From contig JACKFM010000001.1 of the NCBI GenBank assembly GCA_020632475.1, positions 272,125 to 336,124 on the forward strand: a DNA stretch of 64,000 nt. The letters are read 5' to 3'. This document shows, piece by piece, positions 42,711 to 61,735 of this stretch; the stretch's first letter is position 1, and every line of letters starts with the position of its first letter. Position numbers and translations under genes: made by a program. Below the pieces are notes generated by a model. It saw only the letters and a list, made by a program, of their open reading frames with translations, searched no databases and was not told where the DNA came from. Origin of the DNA: Candidatus Omnitrophota bacterium (lineage in GTDB: Bacteria > Omnitrophota > Omnitrophia > Omnitrophales > Aquincolibacteriaceae).

Positions 42711-43133
42711 ATGGAATTAGAAACGATCCAGCATATTGATCCCGCATTTGTGGATGCCCGCGGTGAAATTCATAATCTTTTTGAAGGAACTCTTGGTCAT
42801 GTGGCGATGATTACTTCCAAAAAGGGAACCGTGCGTGCCAATCACTATCATAAAAAAGACCTCCAATATATTTATCTGGTCAGCGGCGCTTATGAAGCCC
42901 ACAGCTGTCCTATCGATGATCCTTCCAATAAACAGGTGCTTCAGGTGAAACCCGGCGATATCGTTAAGACTCCGCCGCTTGTCGCGCATGCTCAGAAGTT
43001 CACCGAAGACTCGGTGTTTCTGGCTTTTACGACATTGCAGCGCGAAGACGGGAAGTATGAAGAAGATACCCTTGCTTTCCCGGTCATTGAAGGCGCTTAT
43101 CTGAACAAAAACCTGACACAGGCCAAAGCGTAA
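42711..43133 (+). CDS. WxcM/FdtA-like cupin (putative sugar 3,4-ketoisomerase)
   Basis: 140-aa cupin fold with the VRANHYHKK...Q.IYLVSG pattern typical of the FdtA/WxcM C-terminal domain. Assigned from size, motifs and sugar-pathway context. Confidence 0.55.
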   Translation: MELETIQHIDPAFVDARGEIHNLFEGTLGHVAMITSKKGTVRANHYHKKDLQYIYLVSGAYEAHSCPIDDPSNKQVLQVKPGDIVKTPPLVAHAQKFTEDSVFLAFTTLQREDGKYEEDTLAFPVIEGAYLNKNLTQAKA

Positions 43134-43147
43134 AGTAATCGGACAGT

Positions 43148-43879: not shown

Positions 43880-43880
43880 C

Positions 43881-43938
43881 AGGACTGAGGACTAAGCGTA
43901 GAGGACTGAGTCCTCAGTGCTCATAGCTCAGTCCTTTG
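43881..43938. repeat. intergenic cluster of inverted ctcagtcct units (family B in reverse orientation), likely terminator
   Basis: aggactgaggactaagcgtagaggactgagtcctcagtgctcatagctcagtcctttgag. ggactgag (43903-43910) pairs with ctcagtcc (43927-43934), followed by ttt. The same 9-mer in forward orientation is tiled through both giant ORFs. Confidence 0.5.
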
Positions 43939-43954
43939 AGTTAAGGAGAGATGA

Positions 43955-45244: not shown

Positions 45245-45529
45245 GAGGGCGTGAGGGCCTCTCCCACCGTTTTTTCGATCTTGTTGAAAATAAAGGAGTT
45301 AGGCCATGATTTGGCGCTAGCATGAACTAGCATTCAAGGCTATCTTACTGCTTTCTATAGCTTCGGATTTGTAAGAGCTACCTCTCCGTGTTACCTTTTA
45401 TAAAGGTTAGAAATAGCAAGGGGTTAGATCGGTTTAACCGGTCTAAAAAGCAGTTTTGGAAAGGGCTGTATTCTTTCTATATCTAATGTAGAAACACCGA
45501 CAAAAAATACTTAACAATAATCATTTCAC

Positions 45530-48500
45530 ATGAAGCATCCTTTTTTCAATTTTAAACGTTTTATTGCGATCACCGTTGCTCTGTGCATGGTGTTGACCGA
45601 CCGTTCGGCAGTTTCCTATGCGCAGGCGGCGTCTGCCCAGTTTGCTTCAGAGGCTCAAGCCGTAAATACCAAACTGGCCTCAGCTCAATTCGTTCTGCCT
45701 GGCTTTAATCTTCCTTCCGAGCTGGGCTTCATCGAGGAAGTCTATAGCGCACCGCGTGAAAAAGAGCAACCGTCTCCCTCGGCCCTCAGTCCTCAGCCCT
45801 CAGTCCTGCCGTCGAAGACGGTGATTTATATCCAGGATGCCCATGACTCGCTTGAAGCTCAGGAGCATATTGCTGAAATGATCCGTCTTTTCGTGCATGA
45901 CAACGGTATCAAGACGGTCCTTGAAGAGGGGTATGATGGGAAAGTTCCGACGGATGAGTATTTCGGATCAATTAAAGACCCGGAGATTAAAGAAGAAGTT
46001 TCCTACTTTTTGATGGATAAGCTTCGGATCGGCGGTGCGGAGTACACCCACATCAATCGCCAAGAGGATTTTAAGCTGATCGGTGCGGACAGCATTGAGC
46101 TGCACCGCGAAAACGTCAAAGCCTACCAGAAAAATTCAGTTTATCTCAAACAGGTTCAAAAAGATCTGAAGGAAATGTTTGAACGGATTGAAAGGATGGC
46201 GAATGTCCATTTTTCAAAAGAACTCAAGCAATGGATGAAAAACAAGAAACGATACGATGCCGGACAGCTTGATCTTTTAAGCTATCTTAAGCGGACAGCC
46301 GGCCTCTTAGGCGATTCTGCTTTGCCGTATCCGAATATTCTCGTGCTGCTTTCGGCTGAAGAAACCAAAAATGCCCGGGCGATTGAAAAGGCCAAGGAGA
46401 TCCATAGTGCGCAGTTATTTGAGGAAATAGGAGAATTTGAAAATAGTGTGGCTGAAAAGTTTTTAACCCATGATCGTGACCGGGATATTTTTAAATATTA
46501 TAAAGCCTTGAGTCTTATGCTGCGTTTAAGCGACATTGAAGTAACCCCTGAGGAATACGAGGCCGCCAAAGGCACCCTTAAAAATTTCGATACCCGCAGG
46601 ATGGCCGAATTTATCGTGGCGGATACCAAGCATACCGCTGTACTTTCGACCGAATGGGAAGACAAGATTAAAAATGCCATCCGTTTTTATGAGATTGCGC
46701 ATCAGCGCGATGACAGTATTGAAAAGCATCTGGAAGACTTTTTAGCTTCCGACCAGCAGACGGCTGTCCTTGTTTTTGGAGGTTTTCACCGAGATAAAAT
46801 TCAGGCCATTATGCGTGCAAAGGGGATCTCGTTCGTTACTTTACAACCCGCAATCAGTTCGGTCAGCCAAACCCACCAGGAATATTATAAACAGTTGATG
46901 TCTTCCGGTTATCTTGATTTTGAAAAAACACTTCATCTGGATTCGGAGCAAGGTTTTTCCGGATCAAATATCCCACTGCCGCAAGCCTCCCGCATGTCCA
47001 GGACACTTCTGGTCTGGGATGTCCCGGGCTATGGACGGGTTGTCGAGGGGTTGGCGGAGACGGCACGCGTTTTGAAAAATCGAAAGCCGGATATGGATCG
47101 CCCTCTTTTACTGCGTCAGATGGCCAGGGGACTTCAGGCGCGCAGTAGCGCCTTTGAACAGGAAACTGTTCCGGGACACGCGGAATTGCGTAATCAGGAA
47201 GCCTCTCCGCAAAACGAACCTCCCGAATCTTCCGTTAGACTTCGGATGGATGAGCCTCAGGGGTTTGCGGCGCCGCGTATACGCGGGCATTTACAGGCCT
47301 ATGAACGCCGTCTCAGAGCGCAGGCCTTAAGAAGAAAATTGGCTGAACTGGGACTTCTTTTTACGGCCGTTGCACTTGCGGTTACCGCGGTTATATGGAG
47401 TGTTGTGGATGCAGAGACTGAAATCCGTGCCACGGATGTTATTTGGATGACGATTGGTGCTTTTGCTGCAAGCGTATGGGTGTTGTACCGTTTTCTTTCA
47501 GAACGTGATTTTAGAATCAGTAGTGAACAGGAGCGGATTAATTTTGAACGCATTCTCAATGGAACCAAAGACGGAGAAAGTGTGATTCGTTCCGTTGAAA
47601 TGCTTGAGGCCTATGCCCAATCACCCGATCGGTCACAGAGAAGCGATATTATCCGCTCGGCTGAAAGGGTTAAAGATGAGATTCTTGAGCGGAATCCATT
47701 ATTGACGATTGTCGATCAGGAAAAGATTACCGAAGGTGATAAGATCGTCATTTTTGAAATTCCCGGTACCGGACATGAAGGGCTTGGGATTAAAGAGATG
47801 AATGCTTTATTTGGAGAGCTTTTAACGGATAACTTTCTGGCTGAAGTTAAAAAGAGCCTTTATGCAATGGTCCGTGCATCTGCCTCAGTAAGAGGAATTT
47901 CAATCACGCCGCTTTATTCTACCCATAAAGAGCATGCCTTTGTCGTCAGAGGAGATGTTTCACAGGATTTTTTGCGAAATGAAATCCAGAAAAAACTCGT
48001 TGAGGCCATGAATCGGATTCTGCTCACATCCGATGACCTCCCGTACCGCCGGATCATCGAAGAGAAGAAGCTTGATCAAAACGGGGAGGATTTATTTGAA
48101 ATTCATTTTGGAATGAGCCGCGTTGAAGAAGATTCCGAAGAGGGGAGGCTGACGGCCAATATTCGCGCTAAACAGGCTTTGCTGATTTCCAGATACCGGA
48201 ACGTCTGGGACAATAACCGTGATCCGGATCTGGTTTTATATTCCCATGAGAATTACGCTGCCGTGGTTGATGAGTTGGCGAGCATCCGTCGCCGGCTTTT
48301 AGCCAATGAAGGGGCGGCTCTGTTTGCCACGGGTGAAAATGAAGCGTTTGGGCAATATTTCTTTTTAAGACCGGGGGCAGCCAATATCCTGAGAAAAAAA
48401 GTTGAATGGGGCGAGCTGTCGACGGAAGAAAAGAAAGTTTTTCATCATGTCGAAATTTACCAGCTTGCACAACGATACTTTGAACTCCTGAATCTGCAGG

Positions 48501-51500
48501 ATGTAATTAAAAAATGGCAGATGGATGAGGCGGAGGCCTTTCGTGAAATCAGAGAAATTCGCGGCATTCTTGAAACACTGGATTTTCTAGTGGATCTTCT
48601 CGTGAGCGGAGCACAGGGACGCGTCCGTCCTGAAGAAATGCCTCTGGATGTGATTGGGCAGCAACGGCTCGGCCTTTTGCGCAAATATGCTTTAAATGAT
48701 GCGCGCAACCGTAAAGCCTATTCGCAAAATGTATTTCATGCGAAGGCGGCTGAGATGGCTAATCCTGTCATTGTCGGTTTAGATGTGATCGGAATGGGGC
48801 CCATGAATTATGAGGCCTTTGACGGCGAATTGCAGCAGATCGACAAGCAATTGAAATCCGGAAATCCCGTGACCGATGCAGAGGTTCAGGCGATTCAAAG
48901 ACAGGCGGCCGACTCGGTGACGCTCAGGCGTGACCATATCCTGGATGAAATCCGTGATCAATTACAGGAAACCTACCGTGAAGTTAATCTGACACCACCG
49001 GGTGAGTTGATTGCACGCATTGGCGGAGATGAAGTGGTCTTTGTGGGAGATAGTTCGGTTTTGCACGGGGCTGTGCTGGACCGGTTTCTAACCGGATTGC
49101 GTGAGAGGATTCGCTCGAATCTGGGTATTCATGTGCGCATTGCGGCTGATTCTTTGATCCAGGACTACCGCCGGCGTTTCACTCGGACAACGCGTTCGGA
49201 TCCGAAGATGATGGCCCATGCCCGGGCGCTCAGTCTTCAGGACACGAATGTCAATCATGTCCTCAAGCCGATGGAGAAGAAAGGCTTAACCGGAGAGTTG
49301 CATGGCCACGGCGGGGCGATCGTTGTGCGTGCCAAACGCTGGGGCTTGAACCGCTGGAACCGCGTCGTGGAAACCGATCAGGGTACGACCCGTATCGATG
49401 CCGAAGCGGAAATTATTTTAAGCAACTGGCATTTTAACCCGGGATTACTCACCACCAGGCGTACGGAACTGAGATCTTCTGCCAATGATTCTGAGGTCTA
49501 TCCGCAGCCGGTTGAATTTTTCACTCATCCATGGACACTTCAAGAAAGATGGCCGTTTGCGCCCAGTGCCTTACTGCGTTTTCCGGGCCAGTTGACCGCG
49601 CTAAAACGCAGCGTATTTCCGGCGCTTTTAAAAAGACAGGGCGATTCGAAAAAACTGAAAATGTCTTTTCTGGCGACCAACACCGGAGAGGAAATCGCCG
49701 GATATCTTTATGCCTTGTCATTAGCCTATGACGCGCATACCGAATGGGGACAGGCTGGAAAACTCGATCTTTCGATCGTCGCCAATGATTTGCACGCGGA
49801 TATTCTTGAAGAAGCCCAAAGGCGTCTTTCCGGAAAATCTCCTTTTGTTTTCAATGGCGATTTTATCGGCGGTGATCAGGAAGCGGAAATGACCATTTAT
49901 GAGCCGCTGCTCCGGCCGCTGCCGTCGTCGTTTGAACCCTTTCTTCGGGCAATTAATCCGATTAAATCTCGGATTCAAAAGTCTTTTTCTTTTATTTCCG
50001 GCAGTATGTTCCGCAGTTTTCGTCTGTTTAAGGCGATCGTCGGTTCGGACATTATTGTTTTAAATGCAGCGCCGATCCCTTCCTGGAAACCTCTCCTGTG
50101 GCTGTTCGGAAAAATATTAACACGCGGCGAAAGACCTCCCGTAATCATTACCACCAATCGGCAATTAGCCGAGGGTCTTTCCGGATATCAGGTGCTTGGA
50201 TTACGCGATCTGGGGTGGGCTGGTTCTTATCTTGCGATTCCTAAATGGCTGCAAGAGGATTTTGATATCGAGCCGTTAACTTCGATGATTTTGAATCGTG
50301 CAGAGTTGCGGGCTGCGAGCGATCAGACATTAAGGCAGCAGTTGTTAGGTGAACTGCATTCAGAACCGGATGCCCAAAACCCTGTTCTGCAGACCTTGTT
50401 TATGTTTGATGCTTTGAAGAGAGTGGTTCAGGGGGAACCTTCAGCGCGAAATCCTGTGTTTCAATTGAGATCCGATGATATTTTAAAAGCCATTTTGGGA
50501 AACCGTAAAGCCATTGAGGTTTTTGAAAATCCGGTAACTCAGGAGAATTTAAAACGTCTGGAAGGTTTGCCTTATCTTTATCGCCTGGCCGTCAACGGAA
50601 TTGCCACCGAGCCCGAGCATTACGGGCGCCTTTTTATCCGGGCAGGGGAATCCCGTCTGGCGCCTGAGGAATCCTTTCGTCAGGCACTTGAAATGGGCTT
50701 GAAAACTGTCAGCAGTGGGACGCCTCAGGAGATCCGGGATGAAAAACTGAAGAAGGTTAAAAGATTTCTGGATTATCACTTTTTGAAAGTTTTTCTGCGT
50801 TATTGGAACCGTGAATATGCCCCGTCGCTGCCGACCATGCTTGAAGGGGTTATCCCGGACACCGTGAAAAGAAATCAAATGCTGATGGCCAATATTACCC
50901 ATTTAAGCGGTGCGGTTTTGCAGGCTGTCTATGACGTTAATCATGAATATTTAAGTGCCCAGTACGGTGAGCCCGATTCAACCGGCAGTATTGTTCTGGC
51001 CGGTGCCAATGCCCGCGGCGAATATCCTACTTTTGATTATGATGCCGTAGTTCTTTATGAAAAAGACGGCCGCACTCCCGGAGGCCCCAGCGGGACTCTC
51101 TCCCATGCTGAATTTTATAACCGGCTTGCGGTATTAATCCGCCAAAGTTTTGAAGGCGATCCTCAATCGGGGTATGCGGGGATGGGCCGTGAAATGGACA
51201 GCCGGTATCAATATACAATTTTTAAATCATTTCTGAACGCTTGGGGTGTTGAAGAAAACCGGCCGATGTGGGCAGTGAGCATTAACCGTGCCGAGGCAGC
51301 GCTTAAAAGTTCTCAGCCGGTTGGTTTGATCCTTAGCTTTCTGGATCTTATGCCCGGTGCCGGTGACATGGACCTAGCCGAACGTTTTATCCAAAGCACG
51401 CAGGAATATCTCGCGGATGAAAAACATCTGTATACGGGCATGGCACAGACGCTGAGTGCCTATCAGTTTATGCGGCAAAAGACGGCAGAGACATCCCCGG

Positions 51501-54500
51501 TGCTGGATATCAAAGGCACTGCAGGCGGGCTGCGATCATTCCATTATTTTTTATGGTTTTTGCGCCTTTACCGCCGTTTGCTCTTTATGCGTGCCGGGCA
51601 ACCCAGGGCAGCTCAAAAACCCGCTTCCGGTTTGAATTTTCTGGATAATCTGACCGTGTTAGAACGGGAATTTTCCGGGACCTCTGTGCGTAATGAGTTG
51701 ACCGCTTATTATCTTTATTTGATCAATTTACGACTGACCATGGATCTTTTTTATGCGCGCAATAGCAAACAGCTTCCGACGGATTCTTTGGCCCTGGCTT
51801 ATTTTGCCTTTTACAATGCAACCCTTTATCGTCTGGCCGAAGGCGCCTCTCCTCTCGGTTTTGATCCTGCGCAAGCGCTGCCTCTTCAAGAAGAGTTTTT
51901 GAGGCAGTTGAAGCAGGTGATGACACGGATTGATGGTTTAATCGACGGTTTGATGAATGACCTTCTGTCCGGAAATTTTGATCAGGTCAATATGCATTTG
52001 TCCCAATGGCAGTCCTCACCGGAGTTAATTGATGCAGCGGATCTTCGGCAAACTGCTGCAAGTCTGGTGGAGACAAGCCGGGAGGAACTGGATCAGGCCG
52101 CTCAGAAGCATGTGGAGCAACTGGTTGAAGATCGCACAGGGCTATCTCCTCAAAAAATGATTATTTTTGTAACTGCTTTTTTGATGAGGACGCGGAACAT
52201 GACACAAGTTGCGGCGGAAAGAAGCGCTCTCTGGTATTCTGAGAACAGGCCTCGGGAGTTTGAACGAATGGCCCATAAAGAGGAAAAACATCGTAAAGCA
52301 GAATTGAGGAATGATACCGAGACTCTGGCTGGGGTGCGCGGTGAGATCGAACGTTGGGATGTCAATTACATCGTAAAGAAAAAACATTTTGGTCTGCAGC
52401 TTGGAAGGCGTTTGAATATGGCTTCGGGGCCCGGCAGCGTGCTTGAATTTGATTTTCTGAAACGCATGATGCGTTTAATGCTTCCGGAAGCGGAAGGCAT
52501 TTCTGCCGCCACACCTCCGGGCGGTACAATGCCGGATTATGTCAGGTCTCAAGAAGAGTTTGAACAAATGCTTGACGTTTTGGAACAGACGGGGATCTTA
52601 AAAGAGCCTGTCATCCCTCGCGGCGAATTTGAAACCGAATCGCAGCGGTTGATGCGTGCCAATAAAACATTAGCCGAAAATTTTGATTTTTTCAGCCGGA
52701 ATCACCTGCACGATATGACGCTGACCGATGACCGCAACCCGTTAGTCCGGGATTACAAAACACGTATACCGGAACATTATTTGCAATCCGAAAGAGCTTT
52801 TCAAACCGTGATTCCGCTGGTGCTGCTGATGTATGAAAGACGCTTTCCCGGAGAGGTTGAGACACAAACGCTCAAAGATCTGGATGATCATTTTGTTTTA
52901 CAAAAAAAGAAAACACTTCACTTTGACTGGGAACGCGGATTTTTCGAAGGGGAAAGTGAAGTGGTTGCCCTGAAGCCTTCAGAAGGTGCTGCTGTTCAGT
53001 TCTTTGCCGTTCACCCCGAATTAACTTTTAAAGCCTTTGAGTATGGAGTGCCGGATGTCAATATTCTTGAGGGCCTCAGGCTTAACCGGGATGCTTTTGA
53101 AAAGTGGATCCATTTACAGCGCGCCTCTCCGTCCGGTGTGGGCAGTGCAGGCTTTCAAGTGCTTGTGCAATCTTTTGTGCACCTCTTAGGAAAAGCTTCG
53201 GGTGATCAGCATGCCTTTTCGAAAACAATCTGGTATTTACACCGGTTTGGGCTATTAAATGCGTATATTCGTGAATATGAACCCGGAAAAATCGGCAATC
53301 TGATCGCTGATCCCGCTGTGCATGAGTTTACCACCGATCAGCACAGCCTTTATCATTTTGAAGTTCTGGATAAAATCGGTCCTGATGATCCGGCCGCGTT
53401 TAGTCTGATCCGTGATTTTTATTTAAAAATTGAGAATTCCCCTGAAGACTCCCATGAGCGAAAACTGCTGGCGGCATTGCGATTAAGCGTTTTTTTACAC
53501 GACTCCGCCAAGAGTTTCTTTTTTGCCGGTTCGGCCGATCATGCCATTCAGGCTGCACAAAATGCGGTTCCCCGTTATCTCAAAGAAATGGGCTTTGACG
53601 ATGAGACAATTGAAACCACCGCCTGGGTTGTTCGCAATCACATGGTTTTAAACAGCTATGCCTACAGGCGGCTTGTTGATCATCCCGAAGAAATCAGTGA
53701 TGCGGTGGAACGCATGGTCTGGGATCCCGGGATTACTCCCGAACGTTTGAGGCTGCTTTATCTCATATCCCTTTCGGATTATTTCTCGCTGCAGCCTCTC
53801 AAGGATTATCCTTCTTTAAATCCGCATTTTGAGTTGGGGTTACGGGTTCTTCCGGATGCCGAGTCTGAAGGGAAGTGGACTTCGCTGGAACGTATGCATC
53901 AGCTTTACCAGGCACTTGCCTCGATTGTAGGCGAGACGGATCCGGTTTCAAGAGAAGATAATATGGCTCGTATCCGCGCGTTAAGAACAAACGAAATGCA
54001 GAGTTTCTGGAACCGCTTTTTTGCCGAAACCGCTTCCCAGGTTCTAGAGCACCTGACCGAGGATGCTCTTTATGAGCGGTATTTAGCCGCGGCCCGGAAA
54101 GGGACGGGCGAAGTCCGGGAAAATGAAATCCGGAGGAATGCCGCCTATACTGTGGAGCATCTTTATCAGGACTATTTTTCTGAAATTTTGGATGATGGGG
54201 CCCGCACCCCCGAAATCCAGGCAGAGGTGCAACGAAGGGCTTCTTCAGAATTTGCACAGCTTTTTTATCGGGGCTACATTCAGTCTTTTGATGAAGGCTA
54301 TTTGAAAAATCTGACGCTTCAAGAACATCTTCGGAGGTATCTTTTCACCGTTCATTTGGATGTCCTGCGCAAGCGCGGTTATAAAAAACCCATCATTCTA
54401 TTTAATCCCGGTTTTGATAATGTTTCAGAACGTCAGCATGAGTTCATTATCGGGTTGACGACCGATGAACGAGGCGTTTTTGAAGATGTCACCGGGGTGC

Positions 54501-57500
54501 TGGCCTTGCATGAAGTAGATGTGCAGGGAGCCCGTTTTGTGCGCACCGGATCAGGGCTTATTGTTGACCGCATTTTTGGGTTCCGCCGTAACGGTGATGC
54601 CGAGATCGATACCCTGCGCCAGCGCATCTGGACAGATCTGGGCCGTATTTTTACGGATTACAACCGGCAGGACCATGCGGTTGAAATCTTTTACCGTGAA
54701 AAGGAAAAACCCTATCAATCCGTCCGTCCGCCGACACGGTTAAAACAGGATACTCACATACAGTGGTTTCATGACCGCAATACCGACGGTGAGGAGACCT
54801 CTGTTTTTACGGTTAAAACCACAGACCGGCCTGCGCTCCTTCATGTCATCGGCCGTATTTTGAATACCCGGGGTTATAGTGTGATTAAAGCACCGATCAC
54901 CACCTATGAGCCGTTTACCGACAATACGTTTTATATCAATAAAGACGGGACTTTTTTAAGTGATGCCGAAAAAGAAGCGCTTGAAAAACTGTTGGTTTCT
55001 ATCCTTGATCAACCCATCATCAACATTGCGGATATTAAAGGGGACAGGTCTTCAGCCCTGTCCCCTGACCAGGTACCTCCCAGCGCAGCTAATGACGCCG
55101 CGTCTGGACATTCCGAGTTACGAATTACCATGCATTCCGATGAGGCGGAGGTTGCGGCATGGATGGATGAGCTTGCAGCGGAGATTACAGATGCCGGTGA
55201 TCGTAAAGCCGCCGAGGCGTTTATTACTGTTTTTAGACAAAATCCCGAACTTGACCGTAGCGAAATATCCTATGAAGGCTGGCATCAGTTCGTTGGTGTT
55301 TCACGCGATGATGCCGGTACAAGCTATGCCCATATTCTTCTGGATGCCGCTGTTCATTTTCCGCGCAAATTAATCCGTGCCGCACTGGTGCATGAGGGAA
55401 CGCACATTTTGAATAAGGATCTGCAGGATGCGCAGCTTGCAGCCTTTTTAGCGGCACAACAAGAATGGGCTGCAATGACGGCCCGGGGCGGAGCTCAAAC
55501 GCAAGACGATGTGGACGTTCTTTTGGAACCGCTTGCAGACTCCATGGCGCTAACGATGGAAGACGAGTGGCGGGCCTATCAGGCCGGTGACCGTGTATTC
55601 TTGTCATCTCTTGACGGGTCGGTCGATGATTTTATTCAGGCACTGCCTCAGCCGGATGCACACGCCCCAAGAGTTGATCAGGCGAGGTATCTGATGATTC
55701 GTGGGTTGGTAGAAGATATTCGGGTGCGGTCAACGCAGCTCGAGACTTATGAACTTAAGACTAAAGCCACTGCTTTGCAGGGAATTCTTTCGATTGATAA
55801 CCTTTTAGCCTTAAACCAGGGATCGCGGGCAGAGCTGATCAATCTTTTTCTGATCATTGTGGCAACTAACGGCGAAGGCGCGAGGTATGTGACCTGGGAT
55901 CAAAGTCGTGAATATCTTCATCAGACGACCATTACTGATATTCAGGGTCTGACCCGATGGCTGCTTTCTCAGCCGCGTGCTCAGCAGATCGGTCAACTCA
56001 TCGCCCATTACACCAGGACGGAGTCGAGAGCTTATCTCAGTGATTCTGATTTTGTGACCCATGAAGCCATTGAAGAAAGCGGATATGGTCAGGAGCTGCG
56101 CCGTAAATTCACATCTGCTTTTGACCGGATTATGGCAGCAAGTGTTCCAGCGGCGTCGCAGGATCTGCATACCGGAATTAAGGCGGTACTTTATACCGCC
56201 TATGATAAAGCCCCTCAGATTTTCCTAAGCATTGATCCGAACATGGAAGCCCGGGCAGCACATGTCATTTATCTTTCTTCGGAAAGACAATTGATTCTGA
56301 AATTTCCATCGGTGGAAAAAGCGCGCGAAGCAGATGAGAATTTTCTGATCGGTGCGATCCTCTATGCTGCCGGCGTGCCGAGGACAGGGCATCCGTGGAA
56401 TATATGGACGTTTAATCCGAGGATTCGTGACAATACCTATAATATTCCAGCCGCAGGCGTTACTTACCGTGTGACAAACGATCTTTTGAATTCTCTTCAG
56501 CAGGTGATTGCTCAAAACATCCCGTCGGCTGCAGTGGGAACCTCAGCGTCGCCGGCTCCAAGGAGGAGATGGCAATTTCGCCGTGTAGCACCCAATGAGC
56601 GTGTGGACGTTCCTCCCCGTCAGAGGAGCGGCAGCCCTTTGCCAGCAGCTGTTCCACCGCGAGAATCTCCGGATGAAATTGAGGAAATCCGGTTTGTTAA
56701 TTTTCGGGGCAATGAGAATTGGCAGCAAAACGCTGAGAAAGTCATCCGTGAAGCATTCCGAGCCATTGCAAGAACGCCAACTGAGAGTTTGAGTGATCAG
56801 CGTCTTCAGGGTGTGCTTCAATTCATTCATGAGATGATGGAAATCCGCGGGACATCCAGTCATGTGGTTTTAGCGGTTGAACCGAATCTCACCGGTGTTG
56901 CCGGTGAGGTGGCTTCGCTCGGACGTCTCCCGGCTTTTTTTAGGATCATGCTTGATCGTGACGGTCAAAATAACGGGCAGAAGCGGTTCGCCCGCGGGCC
57001 AAGAGGGAATTTGTTTGATCAGAAGGTTTTTATTATGCATCTTCGAAAATGGCAGGTGCTTGCCTCAGCTGACGGCACTCCTGCAAATGACGTTCAAATT
57101 TATGACGGCATCAATGTCAGACAGAGCATTGCCACTCGCCCAGGAGAACAAATTATTAAGTTCGACCGTGATTTTCTGATCAAGGCCATGGTTCACTCTT
57201 TGCTGGATCAACAGCATTCCTATCCCTGGATCATGGCTGAAAAATATCCCCAGATTCAGTTTAATTCGGATACGAATGCGATTGTCCTTCCCGGAACAAG
57301 GCGGGTTTTTGTCCCGACACCGAGTGAAATCGTTCAAATCGTTGAACACATCATTCAATTTGCTAATCTTCACCCCGAATTGCGCGTGAGCAACGCAGAA
57401 GAGCTGATTGCCTATGCTCGTGATCATAGGGCCGCACCTGCCGAAAATGTGACGGATTTAGCGAATAAAATTGTGCGACTTGGTCTTGGATTTAGCGCGA

Positions 57501-60500
57501 CGACAAGAGATGATCAGACAATATCGGTCACACGTTATGCCCCGTCGTATCTAAGTTTCGAATTAACCGTGGCTGAGTTTAATGCAGGCATTGCTGTGGA
57601 CGACACGATTCCGGTAGCTCTTAATGCGCAGAGCTTTGCGCCTGTGGTTATTCCTCTTATGCAGCACATTGCCGGGCAGATGGATGCTGGACAAATTCCG
57701 GATTTTACGCAGTTTTTTGCCCTGGAACAACGTTTCTCGGATGCTCGCGGATGGCAAGAGGTTGCTCAAAAAATAAAAGACATTGTGACAACTGGAAAGG
57801 TTGAACGTATCACATCCCCAAAGAACAATGAAATCTTTATTGAAATGCTGCGCGTGCTAAATCACGATTGGTTGATCGATCACAATATGGTTATGGTTAG
57901 AGTAACAGGTGCACCTGCTGACAGAAACGGACAAGATGCTGTAAGCGCGGCTGAAACTTTAAGAGTTGCTGAGGTGATCGATAAACGGGTTAGAAAACTG
58001 GCGGGGCGGAATGTGCCTGTGTTAGTGGTTAACCGCGTTTTTGCACAAAATGAGATGCAACCCCTTGGCTATAATACGTCACTTGATTTGCAGGGGATGG
58101 TGATTCTTAATCAACCTCGTTTGAACACCGTGGCGTTAGCGCCTGGGACCTGGAGGAGTTCGATTGCTCCCCAAATGATTTCACATCCATATGGCCAAGC
58201 GCTAAGAAAAATTTATACTGGACATCGCAAGAGGTATGCCGAACGAGCTCCGTACTTTTTACTTTTTCAAAGAGAAAGAGCTTTAGAAGAGTACCGTCAC
58301 GCAATTGATCATTTTCGTATTGAAGATTCTATGGATCGACGCTTTTTTACCATTAGAACGGATTATCTTGATGAGTTTGAAAAAATAGCGATTCAACCGG
58401 AAGGGATTTTAAAGGGCATTCTGTCAGATCAATCATTGATTTCCAAAGCCGGGAAACCCAAATATCATTTTCAAAATGCCTTTTTTGAATTACAAGGGCA
58501 GATTGCACGCGGTGATCATGCTGAGGACCCTACCTTTTTATTGGCTTCATGGCTGCAGCGGTTGGCTTCACCTGTAACGGCTTCCTCTCATCATTATGAT
58601 GCAGCGTATTATGGTCTGTACTTAGCTATTTATTATGATTTCATCACACAAAGCGGTTCCGAATCGCTAAATCAAAGACCTCTCCTTGGTGAATTTCTGA
58701 CTTGGCAGCAAACCCTCATGCCGCAGCTGAGCCAGCAATTGACGCAATTCGTTAATGATCCTGAACGTTTCAGACAAGCTTTAAAAACGATTCACAAATA
58801 CGAATTCACCGGATCGCTTGAAGACCTCGGGGAAGACGTTCGAGTGCCGGAGCCTAATGCTTCGGAACCTTCCAGCGCAGCTAATGATGCTGCGTCTGGT
58901 CGAGCACCGGACGCCGATGCGTCGGTACTTCCAAGCGCAGCTAATGATGCTGCGTCTGGTCGAGCCGAACAGCGGTTTCAGGAAATGATGACGGATTTTG
59001 TTGCGCTTGTGCGTGAGAAGGATTTGATTCGTTCTGAACCGGAGGAAGGGAAGTATCAATTTGAAGAGCGAGGCGCAGGCGGTTTTCGTCTCTGGTCGGT
59101 CAGAGAGAATGGGGATTGGGCTGGAAGCGAGACATCAAACCAAGTGACAGAACTCATTTTTGATCAGCTGGAAAATGTGTTAACACTTAAAGTAACAGGT
59201 GGTGTGGATGGAGACATTGCCTATGAGTTTCGTCCTGACGGCGCGCGTTTCTATGCAGATCACAACAAAACCGGAGAATTTATAGCCCTGGACGCTAAAA
59301 ATCCGATTGTGAATTTTGGAGTTGATGAGCTAAATCGTATTTATTTGATTTATTCTGATGGCTTGATGAACGAATTTTTTGCTAAAGAAGGGCAGAGCCC
59401 TCTGGGAATTTATCCAAGCATCCTTGGAGGCGGGTTTTCTCTTCAAGATGTCAATACAGCGACGAGGTTTACGAGTCCGGATAGCCTTGTGAAGGTTAGT
59501 TTTCTTCATGAACCTTCTCAGGATAGAGACTGGGGGGATGAGATTTTTGTGATTGCAGATGTCAGTTTTGATGAAGAAACTTTCCCGAACGCTGAAAGCC
59601 GTAGCGAGTATCAGCAGCTTTTTAAAGCACATGATTTTCTCTCTGCGACCATTAAAAACCTTGAGCTGGATATTCTTGGGGCACCGATCTCGCAAATCCA
59701 CATCCGAAAAATTAATGATGAACTCAATTATCAAATAAGCCGCGTGACATTGACCAATATGACCGGTAAACAGGCCTCTTTTATTCTGAAACGGGGTTTT
59801 TCAAGTACGTTGAAAGATGAACAGGGGCTTGATGCTTATCAGAAAAAAAAGGATGGGTTGGTGGATCCTGATTTTAGAGGGTTTCCCCTTATAGGTGATT
59901 CGCGGCAGATTTCAGGTGGAGCCTATCACTTTTGGTCTGTTGAAGATTGGGGGGACCAACAGCCGGACAATGAGAGAGGTTTTGACTACTTTTTCCGTCT
60001 TTTTCGTGAGGGGTGGGAACCGCACATCGAGCAGTCTTTTGAATTGGATCGATTAAGAGTCGTTGAAAAAGATGGCCACCGGCATATTGTCCTTTCAGAC
60101 TATAATTATTTTAGGCAAGAGCGGCAGAAAACGCGGCTTTTTGCGACACGGTTGATTCAGGGTTTAATTCTAAATAATCACCAAGCAGGCGCTGATGTTT
60201 TATTGACATTAGGCGCTGTAGCCAGCCGCTATTTAAAAAAGGAACTGATTCAGGAGGTCTTCGATTCATATCGTACAGGCGAGTCACCGGTTCCGCCGGA
60301 ACATTTGCCTGCAATAGGGGATTTGAATGAGGTGATGCAGGATGCTCCAACGGCTGATTTGCTTGATGCTTCGGCAGCGGCTCCTGAAACCCCGCTGCCT
60401 GTACTTCCGCATCCGGTTGCGGTGATCAAGAGTGCTCTTGAAGAGCTGGAACGTGAATTTCCGCGTATCCAGGAATTAAGACAGGAATTTGTACGCCTTA

Positions 60501-61735
60501 AAACATTTTTTGAAGACGTGGAGCCGGGGCAGGATGATTTTTCAGTTCTTCAGGTTTTCAGACTTGCCGCTCTGGCAGACAGGTGGGATGCTTTCTGGGA
60601 TAATCATATTCGTTATCAAATTGGGCGTCCTCAAGATTTTGGTGCAGACAGCGGTAATTTTGTCAGGCATGAACTGATGACCGGAACCAGACACGAATGG
60701 GGTTTTGGAGTTCGGAATCTGGTTGCACGTCTAACAGAACAGTCTATACGTGATCCGCTCAATAATCTGGTTTCTAATCAATTGAAAAGGCTCTCGACTG
60801 ATTTGTTGTCGCATGTTCAGGAAGTTCAGACGGTTGGAGAAGCCTATGGACTTTTTCTAGCGCGTGAATCTTTAGGCAAGGTTCCCGAAGTCAGGTTTCA
60901 AGATGCAGACGGCGTATCAGTCAATTTTTTTAGCGGGATAGGATATCTTAAAGCAAAAAAACGATTCGATCTGCCTGTTGGTAGTGTGGCCTATGATGAA
61001 GCTCAGAACCTGATTACGTTTACTCTTCCCAAATCGGAATTGCGTATAGCACCGCCCGCCGATGCGTCGGTACCTCCCAGCGCAGCTAATGACGTTGCGT
61101 CTGCGTACTCTCGTGTAACTGCGCCCGAGTCACGAGCGACGAGCGACGAGTTCCGCCGCATAGAAGTCAACTACGAACTCTTCGACACAGATGCCGAAGG
61201 AACGATCACCATGCCGGTTGCGGCTTTTGCCGAAATTGCGCAGCAGACTGTTTCAGCTGATGAGGATTTGAAAGCGGAGGCGTTAGCAAAAATGGATGCC
61301 CTGGCTGTGGCAGCCAACCGCTGGCACAATGTTCAGTTAATTTTATATGCCGAAGGCTCGGAGTATGACGCCCAAACCAATTATTATCTGGAACAATTCC
61401 GTCCGCTGGGGAATGTGACCATTACACCGCAAAAACTTGAAGAAGCTTTATCGGTTCCGCGCGGCAAGGAACATCATACGCCTGTCGACATTTCACCCGA
61501 AGGGCGCATTCAGGATCATGACTATGTCGGCGGAGAACTGGTTAAAAAACTGAAATTTGTGAAGCTGCGCAAAAATCCGGGAGATATTCTTTTCGGGCTT
61601 TTGGCTTCAATTACCGGCGGTGATCTTCCGGGTGTCGTCACAGGTGAGGACGGCAACCTGGATGACCTGACCGGTTATGCCACCAGTCAGGCCCAGGCTT
61701 ATCTTGCCCGGCAGGTTGTGGCCTGGTCAGCATAA
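45530..61735 (+). CDS. giant multidomain protein 2 (5,401 aa) with signal peptide, conserved N-terminal domain, TM hairpin, GGDEF-like palm, GlnD-like NTase-HD-ACT-ACT module and HExxH motif
   Basis: Uninterrupted 16.2-kb ORF. Domains, in order:
- N-terminal MKHPFFNFKRFIAITVALCMVLTDRSAVSYAQA.
- First roughly 450 aa homologous to giant ORF 1 (shared ...GGFH... block).
- TM helices at about 47335-47500.
- RIGGDEVVFVGD palm-like motif at about 49020-49060.
- NTase motif AGANARGEYPTFDYD (G-x-R-G-E...D-x-D) at about 50985-51060.
- HD motif VFLHDSAKS...H at about 53470-53700.
- Two ACT-like segments at 54440-54910.
- HEGTH at 55391-55405. Confidence 0.9.
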   Translation: MKHPFFNFKRFIAITVALCMVLTDRSAVSYAQAASAQFASEAQAVNTKLASAQFVLPGFNLPSELGFIEEVYSAPREKEQPSPSALSPQPSVLPSKTVIYIQDAHDSLEAQEHIAEMIRLFVHDNGIKTVLEEGYDGKVPTDEYFGSIKDPEIKEEVSYFLMDKLRIGGAEYTHINRQEDFKLIGADSIELHRENVKAYQKNSVYLKQVQKDLKEMFERIERMANVHFSKELKQWMKNKKRYDAGQLDLLSYLKRTAGLLGDSALPYPNILVLLSAEETKNARAIEKAKEIHSAQLFEEIGEFENSVAEKFLTHDRDRDIFKYYKALSLMLRLSDIEVTPEEYEAAKGTLKNFDTRRMAEFIVADTKHTAVLSTEWEDKIKNAIRFYEIAHQRDDSIEKHLEDFLASDQQTAVLVFGGFHRDKIQAIMRAKGISFVTLQPAISSVSQTHQEYYKQLMSSGYLDFEKTLHLDSEQGFSGSNIPLPQASRMSRTLLVWDVPGYGRVVEGLAETARVLKNRKPDMDRPLLLRQMARGLQARSSAFEQETVPGHAELRNQEASPQNEPPESSVRLRMDEPQGFAAPRIRGHLQAYERRLRAQALRRKLAELGLLFTAVALAVTAVIWSVVDAETEIRATDVIWMTIGAFAASVWVLYRFLSERDFRISSEQERINFERILNGTKDGESVIRSVEMLEAYAQSPDRSQRSDIIRSAERVKDEILERNPLLTIVDQEKITEGDKIVIFEIPGTGHEGLGIKEMNALFGELLTDNFLAEVKKSLYAMVRASASVRGISITPLYSTHKEHAFVVRGDVSQDFLRNEIQKKLVEAMNRILLTSDDLPYRRIIEEKKLDQNGEDLFEIHFGMSRVEEDSEEGRLTANIRAKQALLISRYRNVWDNNRDPDLVLYSHENYAAVVDELASIRRRLLANEGAALFATGENEAFGQYFFLRPGAANILRKKVEWGELSTEEKKVFHHVEIYQLAQRYFELLNLQDVIKKWQMDEAEAFREIREIRGILETLDFLVDLLVSGAQGRVRPEEMPLDVIGQQRLGLLRKYALNDARNRKAYSQNVFHAKAAEMANPVIVGLDVIGMGPMNYEAFDGELQQIDKQLKSGNPVTDAEVQAIQRQAADSVTLRRDHILDEIRDQLQETYREVNLTPPGELIARIGGDEVVFVGDSSVLHGAVLDRFLTGLRERIRSNLGIHVRIAADSLIQDYRRRFTRTTRSDPKMMAHARALSLQDTNVNHVLKPMEKKGLTGELHGHGGAIVVRAKRWGLNRWNRVVETDQGTTRIDAEAEIILSNWHFNPGLLTTRRTELRSSANDSEVYPQPVEFFTHPWTLQERWPFAPSALLRFPGQLTALKRSVFPALLKRQGDSKKLKMSFLATNTGEEIAGYLYALSLAYDAHTEWGQAGKLDLSIVANDLHADILEEAQRRLSGKSPFVFNGDFIGGDQEAEMTIYEPLLRPLPSSFEPFLRAINPIKSRIQKSFSFISGSMFRSFRLFKAIVGSDIIVLNAAPIPSWKPLLWLFGKILTRGERPPVIITTNRQLAEGLSGYQVLGLRDLGWAGSYLAIPKWLQEDFDIEPLTSMILNRAELRAASDQTLRQQLLGELHSEPDAQNPVLQTLFMFDALKRVVQGEPSARNPVFQLRSDDILKAILGNRKAIEVFENPVTQENLKRLEGLPYLYRLAVNGIATEPEHYGRLFIRAGESRLAPEESFRQALEMGLKTVSSGTPQEIRDEKLKKVKRFLDYHFLKVFLRYWNREYAPSLPTMLEGVIPDTVKRNQMLMANITHLSGAVLQAVYDVNHEYLSAQYGEPDSTGSIVLAGANARGEYPTFDYDAVVLYEKDGRTPGGPSGTLSHAEFYNRLAVLIRQSFEGDPQSGYAGMGREMDSRYQYTIFKSFLNAWGVEENRPMWAVSINRAEAALKSSQPVGLILSFLDLMPGAGDMDLAERFIQSTQEYLADEKHLYTGMAQTLSAYQFMRQKTAETSPVLDIKGTAGGLRSFHYFLWFLRLYRRLLFMRAGQPRAAQKPASGLNFLDNLTVLEREFSGTSVRNELTAYYLYLINLRLTMDLFYARNSKQLPTDSLALAYFAFYNATLYRLAEGASPLGFDPAQALPLQEEFLRQLKQVMTRIDGLIDGLMNDLLSGNFDQVNMHLSQWQSSPELIDAADLRQTAASLVETSREELDQAAQKHVEQLVEDRTGLSPQKMIIFVTAFLMRTRNMTQVAAERSALWYSENRPREFERMAHKEEKHRKAELRNDTETLAGVRGEIERWDVNYIVKKKHFGLQLGRRLNMASGPGSVLEFDFLKRMMRLMLPEAEGISAATPPGGTMPDYVRSQEEFEQMLDVLEQTGILKEPVIPRGEFETESQRLMRANKTLAENFDFFSRNHLHDMTLTDDRNPLVRDYKTRIPEHYLQSERAFQTVIPLVLLMYERRFPGEVETQTLKDLDDHFVLQKKKTLHFDWERGFFEGESEVVALKPSEGAAVQFFAVHPELTFKAFEYGVPDVNILEGLRLNRDAFEKWIHLQRASPSGVGSAGFQVLVQSFVHLLGKASGDQHAFSKTIWYLHRFGLLNAYIREYEPGKIGNLIADPAVHEFTTDQHSLYHFEVLDKIGPDDPAAFSLIRDFYLKIENSPEDSHERKLLAALRLSVFLHDSAKSFFFAGSADHAIQAAQNAVPRYLKEMGFDDETIETTAWVVRNHMVLNSYAYRRLVDHPEEISDAVERMVWDPGITPERLRLLYLISLSDYFSLQPLKDYPSLNPHFELGLRVLPDAESEGKWTSLERMHQLYQALASIVGETDPVSREDNMARIRALRTNEMQSFWNRFFAETASQVLEHLTEDALYERYLAAARKGTGEVRENEIRRNAAYTVEHLYQDYFSEILDDGARTPEIQAEVQRRASSEFAQLFYRGYIQSFDEGYLKNLTLQEHLRRYLFTVHLDVLRKRGYKKPIILFNPGFDNVSERQHEFIIGLTTDERGVFEDVTGVLALHEVDVQGARFVRTGSGLIVDRIFGFRRNGDAEIDTLRQRIWTDLGRIFTDYNRQDHAVEIFYREKEKPYQSVRPPTRLKQDTHIQWFHDRNTDGEETSVFTVKTTDRPALLHVIGRILNTRGYSVIKAPITTYEPFTDNTFYINKDGTFLSDAEKEALEKLLVSILDQPIINIADIKGDRSSALSPDQVPPSAANDAASGHSELRITMHSDEAEVAAWMDELAAEITDAGDRKAAEAFITVFRQNPELDRSEISYEGWHQFVGVSRDDAGTSYAHILLDAAVHFPRKLIRAALVHEGTHILNKDLQDAQLAAFLAAQQEWAAMTARGGAQTQDDVDVLLEPLADSMALTMEDEWRAYQAGDRVFLSSLDGSVDDFIQALPQPDAHAPRVDQARYLMIRGLVEDIRVRSTQLETYELKTKATALQGILSIDNLLALNQGSRAELINLFLIIVATNGEGARYVTWDQSREYLHQTTITDIQGLTRWLLSQPRAQQIGQLIAHYTRTESRAYLSDSDFVTHEAIEESGYGQELRRKFTSAFDRIMAASVPAASQDLHTGIKAVLYTAYDKAPQIFLSIDPNMEARAAHVIYLSSERQLILKFPSVEKAREADENFLIGAILYAAGVPRTGHPWNIWTFNPRIRDNTYNIPAAGVTYRVTNDLLNSLQQVIAQNIPSAAVGTSASPAPRRRWQFRRVAPNERVDVPPRQRSGSPLPAAVPPRESPDEIEEIRFVNFRGNENWQQNAEKVIREAFRAIARTPTESLSDQRLQGVLQFIHEMMEIRGTSSHVVLAVEPNLTGVAGEVASLGRLPAFFRIMLDRDGQNNGQKRFARGPRGNLFDQKVFIMHLRKWQVLASADGTPANDVQIYDGINVRQSIATRPGEQIIKFDRDFLIKAMVHSLLDQQHSYPWIMAEKYPQIQFNSDTNAIVLPGTRRVFVPTPSEIVQIVEHIIQFANLHPELRVSNAEELIAYARDHRAAPAENVTDLANKIVRLGLGFSATTRDDQTISVTRYAPSYLSFELTVAEFNAGIAVDDTIPVALNAQSFAPVVIPLMQHIAGQMDAGQIPDFTQFFALEQRFSDARGWQEVAQKIKDIVTTGKVERITSPKNNEIFIEMLRVLNHDWLIDHNMVMVRVTGAPADRNGQDAVSAAETLRVAEVIDKRVRKLAGRNVPVLVVNRVFAQNEMQPLGYNTSLDLQGMVILNQPRLNTVALAPGTWRSSIAPQMISHPYGQALRKIYTGHRKRYAERAPYFLLFQRERALEEYRHAIDHFRIEDSMDRRFFTIRTDYLDEFEKIAIQPEGILKGILSDQSLISKAGKPKYHFQNAFFELQGQIARGDHAEDPTFLLASWLQRLASPVTASSHHYDAAYYGLYLAIYYDFITQSGSESLNQRPLLGEFLTWQQTLMPQLSQQLTQFVNDPERFRQALKTIHKYEFTGSLEDLGEDVRVPEPNASEPSSAANDAASGRAPDADASVLPSAANDAASGRAEQRFQEMMTDFVALVREKDLIRSEPEEGKYQFEERGAGGFRLWSVRENGDWAGSETSNQVTELIFDQLENVLTLKVTGGVDGDIAYEFRPDGARFYADHNKTGEFIALDAKNPIVNFGVDELNRIYLIYSDGLMNEFFAKEGQSPLGIYPSILGGGFSLQDVNTATRFTSPDSLVKVSFLHEPSQDRDWGDEIFVIADVSFDEETFPNAESRSEYQQLFKAHDFLSATIKNLELDILGAPISQIHIRKINDELNYQISRVTLTNMTGKQASFILKRGFSSTLKDEQGLDAYQKKKDGLVDPDFRGFPLIGDSRQISGGAYHFWSVEDWGDQQPDNERGFDYFFRLFREGWEPHIEQSFELDRLRVVEKDGHRHIVLSDYNYFRQERQKTRLFATRLIQGLILNNHQAGADVLLTLGAVASRYLKKELIQEVFDSYRTGESPVPPEHLPAIGDLNEVMQDAPTADLLDASAAAPETPLPVLPHPVAVIKSALEELEREFPRIQELRQEFVRLKTFFEDVEPGQDDFSVLQVFRLAALADRWDAFWDNHIRYQIGRPQDFGADSGNFVRHELMTGTRHEWGFGVRNLVARLTEQSIRDPLNNLVSNQLKRLSTDLLSHVQEVQTVGEAYGLFLARESLGKVPEVRFQDADGVSVNFFSGIGYLKAKKRFDLPVGSVAYDEAQNLITFTLPKSELRIAPPADASVPPSAANDVASAYSRVTAPESRATSDEFRRIEVNYELFDTDAEGTITMPVAAFAEIAQQTVSADEDLKAEALAKMDALAVAANRWHNVQLILYAEGSEYDAQTNYYLEQFRPLGNVTITPQKLEEALSVPRGKEHHTPVDISPEGRIQDHDYVGGELVKKLKFVKLRKNPGDILFGLLASITGGDLPGVVTGEDGNLDDLTGYATSQAQAYLARQVVAWSA
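45763..45808 (+). repeat. family B repeat copy near the 5' end of giant ORF 2
   Basis: agagcaaccgtctccctcggccctcagtcctcagccctcagtcctg encodes EQPSPSALSPQPSVL. Confidence 0.65.
55038..55107 (+). repeat. composite: family C hairpin followed by a family E palindrome in giant ORF 2
   Basis: 55038-55066 is aggggacaggtcttcagccctgtcccc. 55075-55107 is cctcccagcgcagctaatgacgccgcgtctgga, which has the inverted arms cgcagc / gcgtct and ccag / ctgg. Together they encode KGDRSSALSPDQVPPSAANDAASG. Confidence 0.7.
58872..58963 (+). repeat. two tandem family E palindromic units in giant ORF 2
   Basis: tccagcgcagctaatgatgctgcgtctggtcgagc appears twice (58872-58906 and 58929-58963), separated by accggacgccgatgcgtcggtacttc. 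Encodes PSSAANDAASGRAPDADASVLPSAANDAASGRA. Confidence 0.7.
61058..61106 (+). repeat. family E palindromic unit in giant ORF 2
   Basis: gccgatgcgtcggtacctcccagcgcagctaatgacgttgcgtctgcg encodes ADASVPPSAANDVASA. It shares the gccgatgcgtcggtac leader with the 58914 copy. Confidence 0.65.

Follow-up and report, generated by a model that had tools for sequence, protein, structure and literature searches.

What does a set of GlnD-like domains do in the middle of a giant protein? The stretch analysed here (the window) covers 64 kb (64,000 nucleotides) of contig JACKFM010000001.1, part of a Candidatus Omnitrophota metagenome-assembled genome (MAG), and contains two giant open reading frames (ORFs), g1 (giant ORF 1) and g2 (giant ORF 2). 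The g2 product is a modular multi-enzyme protein whose central part carries a nucleotidyltransferase (NTase), an HD domain and two ACT domains in the order found in GlnD. GlnD uridylylates PII through its N-terminal NTase and removes uridine monophosphate (UMP) again through its HD domain, with glutamine setting the balance (PMC4285133, PMC3480911) and PII being the only known substrate (PMC4285133). The initial annotation of the window had read the region as a single GlnD module, stretched and buried in the giant protein. Two adjacent cassettes, M4 and M5, were resolved instead; by alignment, M4 belongs to a separate lineage of nucleotidyltransferases of the GlnE/DrrA type and M5 is a GlnD homologue without the transferase. 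On balance, the explanation favoured here is that they form a ligand-gated writer/eraser pair for protein nucleotidylylation.

The order NTase-HD-ACT-ACT inside a giant protein, as first described, was confirmed, the protein having a signal-peptide-like start, and the four motif segments behind that description were exact in position and all fall within statistically solid domains (Table 1). Profile searches dispelled the suspicion that the motifs are spurious, and on proper alignment the catalytic residues were kept, namely the DxD of the NTase and the H...HD...H...D site of the HD domain. The GlnD model TIGR01693 matched the whole region with E 5.7e-33. The score was 114.2 bits, as compared with an equivalog cut-off of 519.4 bits, and because it lies so far below this cut-off, the region was classed as a homologue and not an orthologue of GlnD. 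Two C-terminal ACT domains and an HD domain with the H...HD...H...D site were present as in GlnD; the combination of the invariant GlnD NTase motif with one contiguous PF08335 domain leading into the HD domain was not found.

M5 was characterised from an alignment of nine cassettes (A1; ~860-940 aa, 25-30% identity), which was set against an alignment of 18 canonical GlnDs (A4). The two matched over 676 columns with a probability of 100% and E 1.2e-52 (hhalign), columns 28-855 of M5 pairing with columns 209-916 of 940 in GlnD, and the A1 profile matched canonical GlnD with E 1.6e-40 in a database of 5.8 billion proteins. TIGR01693 also recognised the pieces separately (E 5.8e-19 for the HD piece alone, E 2.9e-14 for the ACT pair alone). 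The HD metal site is complete, and M5 carries H2598, D2603, H2605, H2657, D2658, K2661, H2671, H2704 and D2750 at GlnD-invariant positions; residue roles here and below were taken from alignments and reviews. Invariant columns of A1 include H2605, H2657, D2658, K2661, H2671, R2702, H2704 and D2750, and the HD positions invariant in A1 are those invariant in the 18 GlnDs. The AlphaFold model of M5 (predicted local distance difference test (pLDDT) 78, predicted template modelling score (pTM) 0.69) began with a helical N-terminal part and a three-strand meander; a helical neck then led into the HD domain, and a long helical linker connected this to the two ACT units, each with a beta-alpha-beta-beta-alpha fold. 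At its C-terminal end, 29 residues (aa 3172-3200) had pLDDT <50. In PDB sequence searches, no chain was matched as GlnD.

The alignment between M5 and GlnD starts inside the PF08335 domain of GlnD, where GPGS..EFD.LK of M5 lies opposite KEG.GGLRDLH; the segment of the M5 N-terminal part aligned to this GlnD motif (KEGxGGLRDLH) is GPGSVLEFDFLK. From this alignment, the N-terminal part probably derives from the second half of a PF08335 domain, of which it would be a degenerate remnant that has lost the GlnD-invariant K and R. A degenerate Pol-beta NTase was also considered for the part preceding the HD domain and was rejected, the model being mostly helical with a three-strand meander and the part aligning to the PF08335 domain and neck of GlnD.

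M4 combines a Pol-beta NTase core with a helical PF08335/HEPN-clan domain. PF08335 was found by Pfam at aa 1988-2139 (E 2.9e-7; score 31 bits, gathering score 21). The NTase segment alone gave weak matches, and these only to GlnE models (E 0.0065 and 0.054). In an alignment of 17 M4-family sequences (A2), G1825, R1829, P1833, D1836 and D1838 were invariant, as were K1995, L2001, R2068, D2072, K2080 and P2083 (motifs IK..GGLR and YGRN.K.LP), and the K and GGL of the PF08335 motif were invariant or nearly so. The family signature LGGANAR[KR]EFPSFDYD reads LAGANARGEYPTFDYD in g2. Of the GlnD motif GGYGRGEL.P.SDxD, M4 keeps the DxD, P, R and one G. A2 matched the E. coli GlnE PDB sequences with E 2.3e-8 and 2.4e-5, and it matched GlnD with E 2.8e-20 (hhalign) over GlnD columns 29-354, the motif lying opposite G93...D105/D107. 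The nearest relatives of M4 are stand-alone PF08335 proteins aligned over aa ~1636-2158, with E down to 2e-33. These proteins have neither HD nor ACT domains, and in ten of them Pfam found PF08335 only, save a marginal DUF294 match in one.

The reading as a single stretched module did not survive this dissection. M4 and M5 are split by a KAELR junction and their alignments overlap on GlnD columns 209-354, and the ~400 aa between PF08335 and the HD domain consist of the helical tail of M4 followed by the N-terminal region and neck of M5. Moreover, M5 recurs in eight proteins without a GlnD/E-type NTase. One stretched GlnD with two insertions was rejected by the junction, the recurrence of M5 without M4 and the overlapping columns. 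The GlnD-like order appears, from these alignments, to have arisen by juxtaposing two cassettes and not by inserting one GlnD gene.

To trace the distribution of the two cassettes, aa 1790-2989 were compared exhaustively by HMMER with 1.84 billion representative proteins, and the 197 matches fell into three groups. The first was P0003, a fragment of g2 with 100% identity. The second comprised eight large or giant proteins (P0004-P0011; 1,706-7,108 aa), which were covered only over aa ~2270-2990 at ~30% identity; the third consisted of proteins of 427-1,315 aa, mostly 600-800 aa, covered only over aa ~1790-2090. Ordinary GlnDs scored only weakly, with E 1e-9 or worse, and matched by way of the HD region. 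When the whole of g2 was used with phmmer, the giant relatives shared with it an N-terminal domain (aa ~8-460) and the cassette at aa ~2270-3190. M5 is about full length in six of the eight, and P0004 and P0008 are cut off inside the cassette. One of the eight, P0011, is labelled Omnitrophota, as is the window itself; P0006 carries the Joint Genome Institute (JGI) label 'UTP:GlnB (protein PII) uridylyltransferase/...'. A hidden Markov model (HMM) of the M4 family had no match in g1 or the eight M5-bearing relatives; this HMM recognised PF08335 in canonical GlnDs with E values of 1e-12 to 1e-20. In the databases searched, M4 and M5 adjoin in g2 only. What precedes M5 varies: P0007, which also carries a Pfam methyltransferase domain, has a Pfam APH-type kinase domain upstream of it, and the upstream stretches were judged by eye to be GNAT-like in P0010 and HATPase-like in P0006. 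Three further searches added little: phmmer of aa 1751-3177 against PDB sequences gave only a spurious caltractin match, a word-indexed homologue search yielded two ordinary GlnDs but not the query itself, and a scan of genome contigs with the module found no relatives. The relatives came to light only in the exhaustive HMMER comparison.

Table 1. Positions of the giant proteins, their cassettes and motifs, and neighbouring genes. Residue numbers refer to g2 unless stated otherwise.
Feature	Residues (aa)	Window position (nt)	Strand	Basis or remark
g2, uninterrupted	5,401 aa in all	45530-61735	+	ORF listing and translation
g1	8,922 aa in all (g1)	13226-39994		
Signal-peptide-like segment and conserved N-terminal domain	1-32 and ~55-470	45530-46939	+	blastp of g2 against g1, phmmer, alignments, hydropathy
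N-terminal domain shared by g2 and g1		45692-46939 (g2); 13226-~15000 (g1)		
Two hydrophobic segments, possible transmembrane hairpin	608-626 and ~637-656	47351-47497	+	Kyte-Doolittle scans
M4: GlnE/DrrA-type nucleotidyltransferase, PF08335 helical domain, C-terminal long-helix tail	1593-2258	50306-52303	+	
NTase motif segment GSIVLAGANARGEYPTFDYDAVVLYEKDG	1819-1847	50984-51070		
NTase active-site motif G1825-x10-D1836-x-D1838 (GANARGEYPTFDYD)		51002-51043	+	
PF08335 (GlnD_UR_UTase, HEPN-clan helical domain), motif IKGTAGGLRS		51491-51946	+	Pfam
KAELR junction between M4 and M5		52295-52309	+	
M5: helical N-terminal part, neck, HD, helical linker, ACT1, ACT2	2259-3196	52304-55117	+	
M5 helical N-terminal part	~2269-2438	52334-52843	+	
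M5 neck and HD phosphohydrolase domain	2444-2546 and 2547-2752	52859-53785	+	
HD motif segment	2648-2674	53471-53551		
VRNHM		53630-53644		
ACT1, beta-alpha-beta-beta-alpha, loop TDERG	2955-3041	54392-54652	+	
ACT1 motif segment	2972-2998	54443-54523		
ACT2, loop TDRPA	3076-3159	54755-55006	+	
ACT2 motif segment	3092-3125	54803-54904		
HSELR junction closing M5, after linker PPSAANDAASG		55109-55123	+	
ELR motifs of g2	551, 1312, 1591, 2257, 3195, 5169	47180-47191, 49463-49474, 50300-50311, 52298-52309, 55112-55123, 61034-61045		
ELR motifs of g1		15281, 16535, 16571, 25247, 31433, 34307, 37256, 39098		first base given
Linkers P(P/S)SAAND(A/V)AS(G) of g2		55082-55105, 58874-58897, 58934-58957, 61079-61102		
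GGDEF-like signature RIGGDEVVFVG in cassette M2	1163-1173	49016-49048		
NUDIX domain of g1		16145-16387		E 5e-7
Cluster of hydrophobic segments in g1	around 6148-7101 (g1)	31667-34528		
Tryptophanyl-tRNA synthetase (TrpRS) gene		5530-6519		
Response-regulator GGDEF-EAL gene		10947-12575		directly upstream of g1
Sugar-nucleotide epimerase/dehydratase, SDR and C-methyltransferase genes		40214-45244		between g1 and g2
GT4 glycosyltransferase gene		61940-63097		after g2
Seven proteins neighbouring g2				exact-sequence look-up: NCBI entries between MCB9799343 and MCB9799360, labelled Candidatus Omnitrophica/Omnitrophota bacterium, on an 810,572-bp contig

In the proposed mechanism, M4 would move a nucleoside monophosphate (adenosine monophosphate (AMP) or UMP) from a nucleoside triphosphate (NTP) to a hydroxyl side chain of a protein target, and the HD domain of M5 would hydrolyse the phosphodiester made by M4. 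A small metabolite, possibly glutamine or another amino acid, would bind to the ACT pair, which would set the balance of both reactions. M4 and M5 together would reproduce the writer/eraser/sensor logic of GlnD. We infer these roles because of the homology to GlnD and the conserved catalytic residues. What the data show directly are the homology, the fold, the conservation of catalytic residues, the limits of the cassettes and their distribution. The activities, their coupling, the ligand and the target are all putative, and the reaction may take place in the cytoplasm of the producer, in its envelope or in a host or prey cell.

Several observations weigh against a writer/eraser pair. The signal-peptide-like segment and the hydrophobic hairpin, taken literally, would put M4 and M5 outside the cytoplasm, away from NTPs; topology predictions for giant proteins are considered unreliable (bioRxiv 10.1101/2023.11.21.568195). 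Eight of the nine M5 cassettes lack a neighbouring NTase, from which it follows that M5 may have a role other than erasing the product of M4. The generic Pfam HD and NTP_transf_2 models gave no match and Pfam ACT gave only E 0.0014, the AlphaFold models of M5 and M4 were built from shallow alignments (9 and 17 sequences, respectively), and the signals behind the PF08335 remnant at the M5 N-terminus are weak. At the NTase motif, g2 has Ala where most M4 relatives carry the first Gly of 'GG', the M4 family has Ala throughout at the GlnD-invariant G94 and G96 of the Gly-rich NTase loop, and the G-x10-DxD of M4 is one residue shorter than the GlnE adenylyltransferase G-x11-DLD to which it aligns. 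No PII gene (~112 aa) was found among the window ORFs and called genes examined, the small ORFs having been only partly family-scanned.

Part of this fits its main rival, in which the two cassettes are independent, M4 being a stand-alone AMPylating or nucleotidylylating effector and M5 a ligand-gated HD phosphohydrolase acting on another substrate, such as a nucleotide or alarmone, a cyclic or 2',3'-phosphate end, or a protein nucleotidylylated by another enzyme. Shuffling of cassettes would then have produced the GlnD-like order in g2 incidentally. The presence of M5 in eight other large or giant proteins without a GlnD/E-type NTase, the varied cassettes preceding it in these relatives (the APH kinase of P0007, for example) and the stand-alone nature of the nearest M4 relatives, which have no HD or ACT domain, all suit this alternative. 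We nevertheless regard it as rather unlikely, since M5 is collinear with GlnD over 676 columns with an E value (1e-52) far better than that for any other family, the one activity established for a GlnD-type HD domain is to take nucleotidyl groups off a protein (PMC4285133, PMC3480911), and a matching writer-type NTase lies directly adjacent in g2, as expected of a functional pair. It is also conceivable that the domains are catalytically dead relics, left with only a structural or binding role in a very large surface protein. The great divergence of the sequences, the failure of the generic Pfam HD and NTase models, the predicted extracytoplasmic location without NTPs and the loss of the GlnD-invariant K and R from the PF08335 remnant of M5 would all be expected of relics; yet the HD metal-binding residues are all invariant across nine cassettes at 25-30% identity and the DxD and IK..GGLR are invariant or nearly so in 17 M4-family members, and such selective conservation at catalytic positions is a signature of active enzymes, which makes this alternative very unlikely. 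About as unlikely is a genuine GlnD orthologue fused into the giant protein and uridylylating and deuridylylating PII at Tyr51 according to nitrogen status. It would explain the domain order NTase, PF08335, HD, ACT, ACT, the fact that the best curated matches for the HD and ACT domains are all GlnD models and the JGI label of P0006, but not the score of 114 bits against a cut-off of 519 bits for TIGR01693, an NTase half nearest to non-GlnD stand-alone proteins and GlnE/DrrA, probably two PF08335-type regions with a junction motif between the halves, the lack of an NTase in the other family members, the signal-peptide-like N-terminus, or the failure to see PII, glnA and amtB among the window genes examined. 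The ligand-gated writer/eraser pair was therefore retained as the best explanation.

The comparison with characterised enzymes places the pair between several known systems. Across M4 and M5, the domain set and order are the same as in GlnD. The differences are the length (~1,600 aa as compared with ~900 aa), the origin of the transferase half from another NTase-PF08335 lineage, probably two PF08335-type regions with a junction motif splitting the halves, the embedding in a 5,401-aa protein with a signal-peptide-like N-terminus, and the fact that M5 normally occurs without any transferase. With GlnE (PDB 3k7d, 1v4a), M4 has in common the Gly...DxD motif followed by a PF08335 domain, and the segment after the DxD, 'G.T.GG....fy..L', which was seen in the GlnE-like match P0144. 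M4 differs in being a single NTase unit and not a tandem pair, in its G-x10-DxD spacing (G-x11-DxD in GlnE) with the signature GGANAR.EFPSFDYD, and in an extra helical N-terminal region of ~190 aa and a long helical tail; nothing points to glutamine synthetase as its target. DrrA/SidM of Legionella pneumophila (PDB 6yx5, 3nku) is listed with GlnD and GlnE under PF08335 (PMC3710099). Like M4, it has a GlnE-like NTase in a multidomain protein, and it is secreted and modifies a protein of another cell. It differs from g2 in having no HD or ACT partner and is ~12% identical to M4. Its eraser SidD is a separate, unrelated protein. By analogy, DrrA offers a precedent for action in another cell; to extend this to g2 is speculation.

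Significant similarity of both sequence and fold also linked the GlnD-type HD region and the helical neck before it, in M5 and in a canonical GlnD (P0153, aa 379-606), to the neck and HD body of the tRNA A-adding enzyme of Aquifex aeolicus (PDB 3wfo). Since canonical GlnD likewise matches 3wfo by sequence, the similarity is a property of the GlnD-type HD region, and it suggests a common origin of the central part of GlnD and the class II CCA-type enzymes. M5 differs from class II tRNA A-adding and CCA-adding enzymes in having no Pol-beta head domain and in ending in two ACT domains, which are absent there, and it is collinear overall with GlnD.

Beyond the two cassettes, g2 resembles the giant proteins reported from the same phylum ('Archaeovorins', 'multi-enzyme metabolic clusters'), in which signal peptide or transmembrane segments are followed by tiled divergent enzyme domains. 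Such Omnitrophota giants carry NUDIX, methyltransferase, GGDEF, GNAT, HATPase and TPR domains (bioRxiv 10.1101/2023.11.21.568195, bioRxiv 10.64898/2026.06.07.730766); NUDIX and TPR are found in g1, and methyltransferase and APH kinase domains in a relative. The g2 product is an Omnitrophota-encoded mosaic behind a signal-peptide-like segment and hydrophobic segments. At 5.4 kaa (thousand amino acids) for g2 and 8.9 kaa for g1, however, the window proteins are far smaller than the giants on which the 2023 paper (>30 kaa) and the 2026 paper (at least 10 kaa) focus, and g2 is not an 'Archaeovorin' in the sense of a length >30,000 aa, SecA_DEAD helicase domains and many transmembrane helices. SecA_DEAD was not detected in g1 or g2 (Pfam scan of g2 at E<=1), and g2 has at most three hydrophobic segments.

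The N-terminal domain, which follows the signal-peptide-like segment directly, is common to g1, g2 and seven of the eight large relatives; P0004, a fragment cut at its N-terminus, was left out of this count. Its invariant residues lie in the motifs IQ.AH...AQ (also given as IQDAH..AQ), EG and GGFH, the alignment is too divergent for deriving search patterns, and Pfam gave no match to the domain. The domain may mark this giant family and may relate to export or anchoring. The hydrophobic hairpin (aa 608-656) is found only in g2 and is absent from the relatives.

Cassette boundaries in both giant proteins share a further feature. The peptide motif [K/R/H][S/A/T]ELR recurs at the apparent boundaries of g1 and g2 (Table 1), and its [S/A/T]ELR core occurs six times in g2 and eight times in g1, as compared with 0.58 and 1.23 copies expected from composition-matched shuffles. 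Six to eight copies each were found in the relatives P0006, P0007 and P0009, and the GlnD-like controls, 66.7 kaa in all, contained one. The copies in P0007 border the HD-ACT-ACT cassette as well as the two Pfam domains, methyltransferase and APH kinase. A DNA-level repeat was rejected because the codons differ at every site, indicating conservation of the protein sequence. The motif is a candidate for a processing site or for a standard joint between cassettes. A low-complexity linker, P(P/S)SAAND(A/V)AS(G), was seen four times in g2, and two of the four copies run directly into an ...E(L/Q)R junction; P0010, P0004 and P0008 have 'SLG(Q/D)PEQAADG'-like linkers in place of the ELR motif. A bolder and, in our judgement, improbable proposal is that the mid-sized Omnitrophota giants are exported polyproteins of exchangeable cassettes joined by a [K/R][S/A/T]ELR processing site, with g2 delivering into a host or prey cell, or deploying at its surface, a matched GlnE/DrrA-type nucleotidylylase and metabolite-gated GlnD-type de-nucleotidylylase that would act as a self-contained, reversible AMPylation/UMPylation switch on a foreign protein.

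Other parts of the giants were less readily assigned. Cassette M2 of g2 contains a GGDEF-like signature, with GLDVIGMGPMN ~80 aa upstream, to which the Pfam GGDEF model gave no match at E<=1; the stretch may represent a domain of the nucleotide cyclase type that has diverged very far. At g2 aa 1349-1431, a CheR-like methyltransferase was matched weakly (E 0.05), and PDB sequence searches with M2/M3 and the C-terminal parts of g2 gave nothing usable. In g1, which has no GlnD-like cassette, a NUDIX domain, TPR repeats in the C-terminal part and a cluster of hydrophobic segments were observed (Table 1).

The integrity of the locus was supported by independent assemblies. Window positions 33955-55244 and 42349-53358 were 100% identical in the assemblies of two other sequencing runs, both of which span the M4/M5 junction, and g2 and its M4-M5 stretch are therefore not an assembly artefact. 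In addition, a 1,196-bp contig (JAGQZN010000797.1) of a 'Sinomicrobium sp.' MAG (Bacteroidota; GCA_020434885.1) was 100% identical to window positions 50835-52030 within g2; this contig was probably mis-binned, the full locus being in the Omnitrophota MAG. Housekeeping genes of the window include those for a UvrD-type helicase, VanY, TrpRS, a photolyase and the response-regulator GGDEF-EAL protein, and no glnA or amtB was found among the window genes examined. The genes between g1 and g2, for a sugar-nucleotide epimerase/dehydratase, a short-chain dehydrogenase/reductase (SDR) and a C-methyltransferase, and the glycosyltransferase gene after g2 give the giants a context of the cell-envelope or glycan type. 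The TrpRS is closest to Chloroflexota (Dehalococcoidales) enzymes (65-70%; 61% for the best Omnitrophota genome), for which horizontal transfer or thin sampling of the lineage may be responsible.

The domains found here and the type of protein that carries them were already known; judged from the sequences and literature compared, a GlnD cassette without transferase, the fact that it recurs and its combination with an NTase of the GlnE/DrrA type were previously undescribed. Full-text literature searches turned up no account of giant proteins with GlnD-like cassettes. GlnD, uridylyltransferase and nucleotidyltransferase occur in the main text of neither bioRxiv 10.1101/2023.11.21.568195 nor bioRxiv 10.64898/2026.06.07.730766, the text of the latter contains none of 'HD domain', 'ACT domain', 'cleav', 'linker' and 'polyprotein', and one of its supplementary files lists none of the relevant Pfam accessions. 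The reading is solid and somewhat surprising for the GlnD/PII and giant-protein fields. For annotation, the automatic label 'PII uridylyltransferase' on P0006 is probably misleading.

For the study of giant proteins, the lack of information on cleavage points has kept them from being split into independent polypeptides for structure prediction (West-Roberts et al.). The cassette boundaries and the ELR motif provide testable cut points at which pieces of such proteins can be expressed, and if the polyprotein reading were true, the motif would be the first concrete handle on whether and where the giants are cleaved. GlnD has so far been regarded as a dedicated PII-modifying nitrogen sensor. Its HD-ACT-ACT half is here a portable cassette in the multi-enzyme giants of host-dependent or predatory ultra-small bacteria, and g2 alone re-pairs this half with a GlnE/DrrA-type transferase. 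If both cassettes are active, reversible nucleotidylylation of the GlnD type would reach beyond nitrogen regulation.

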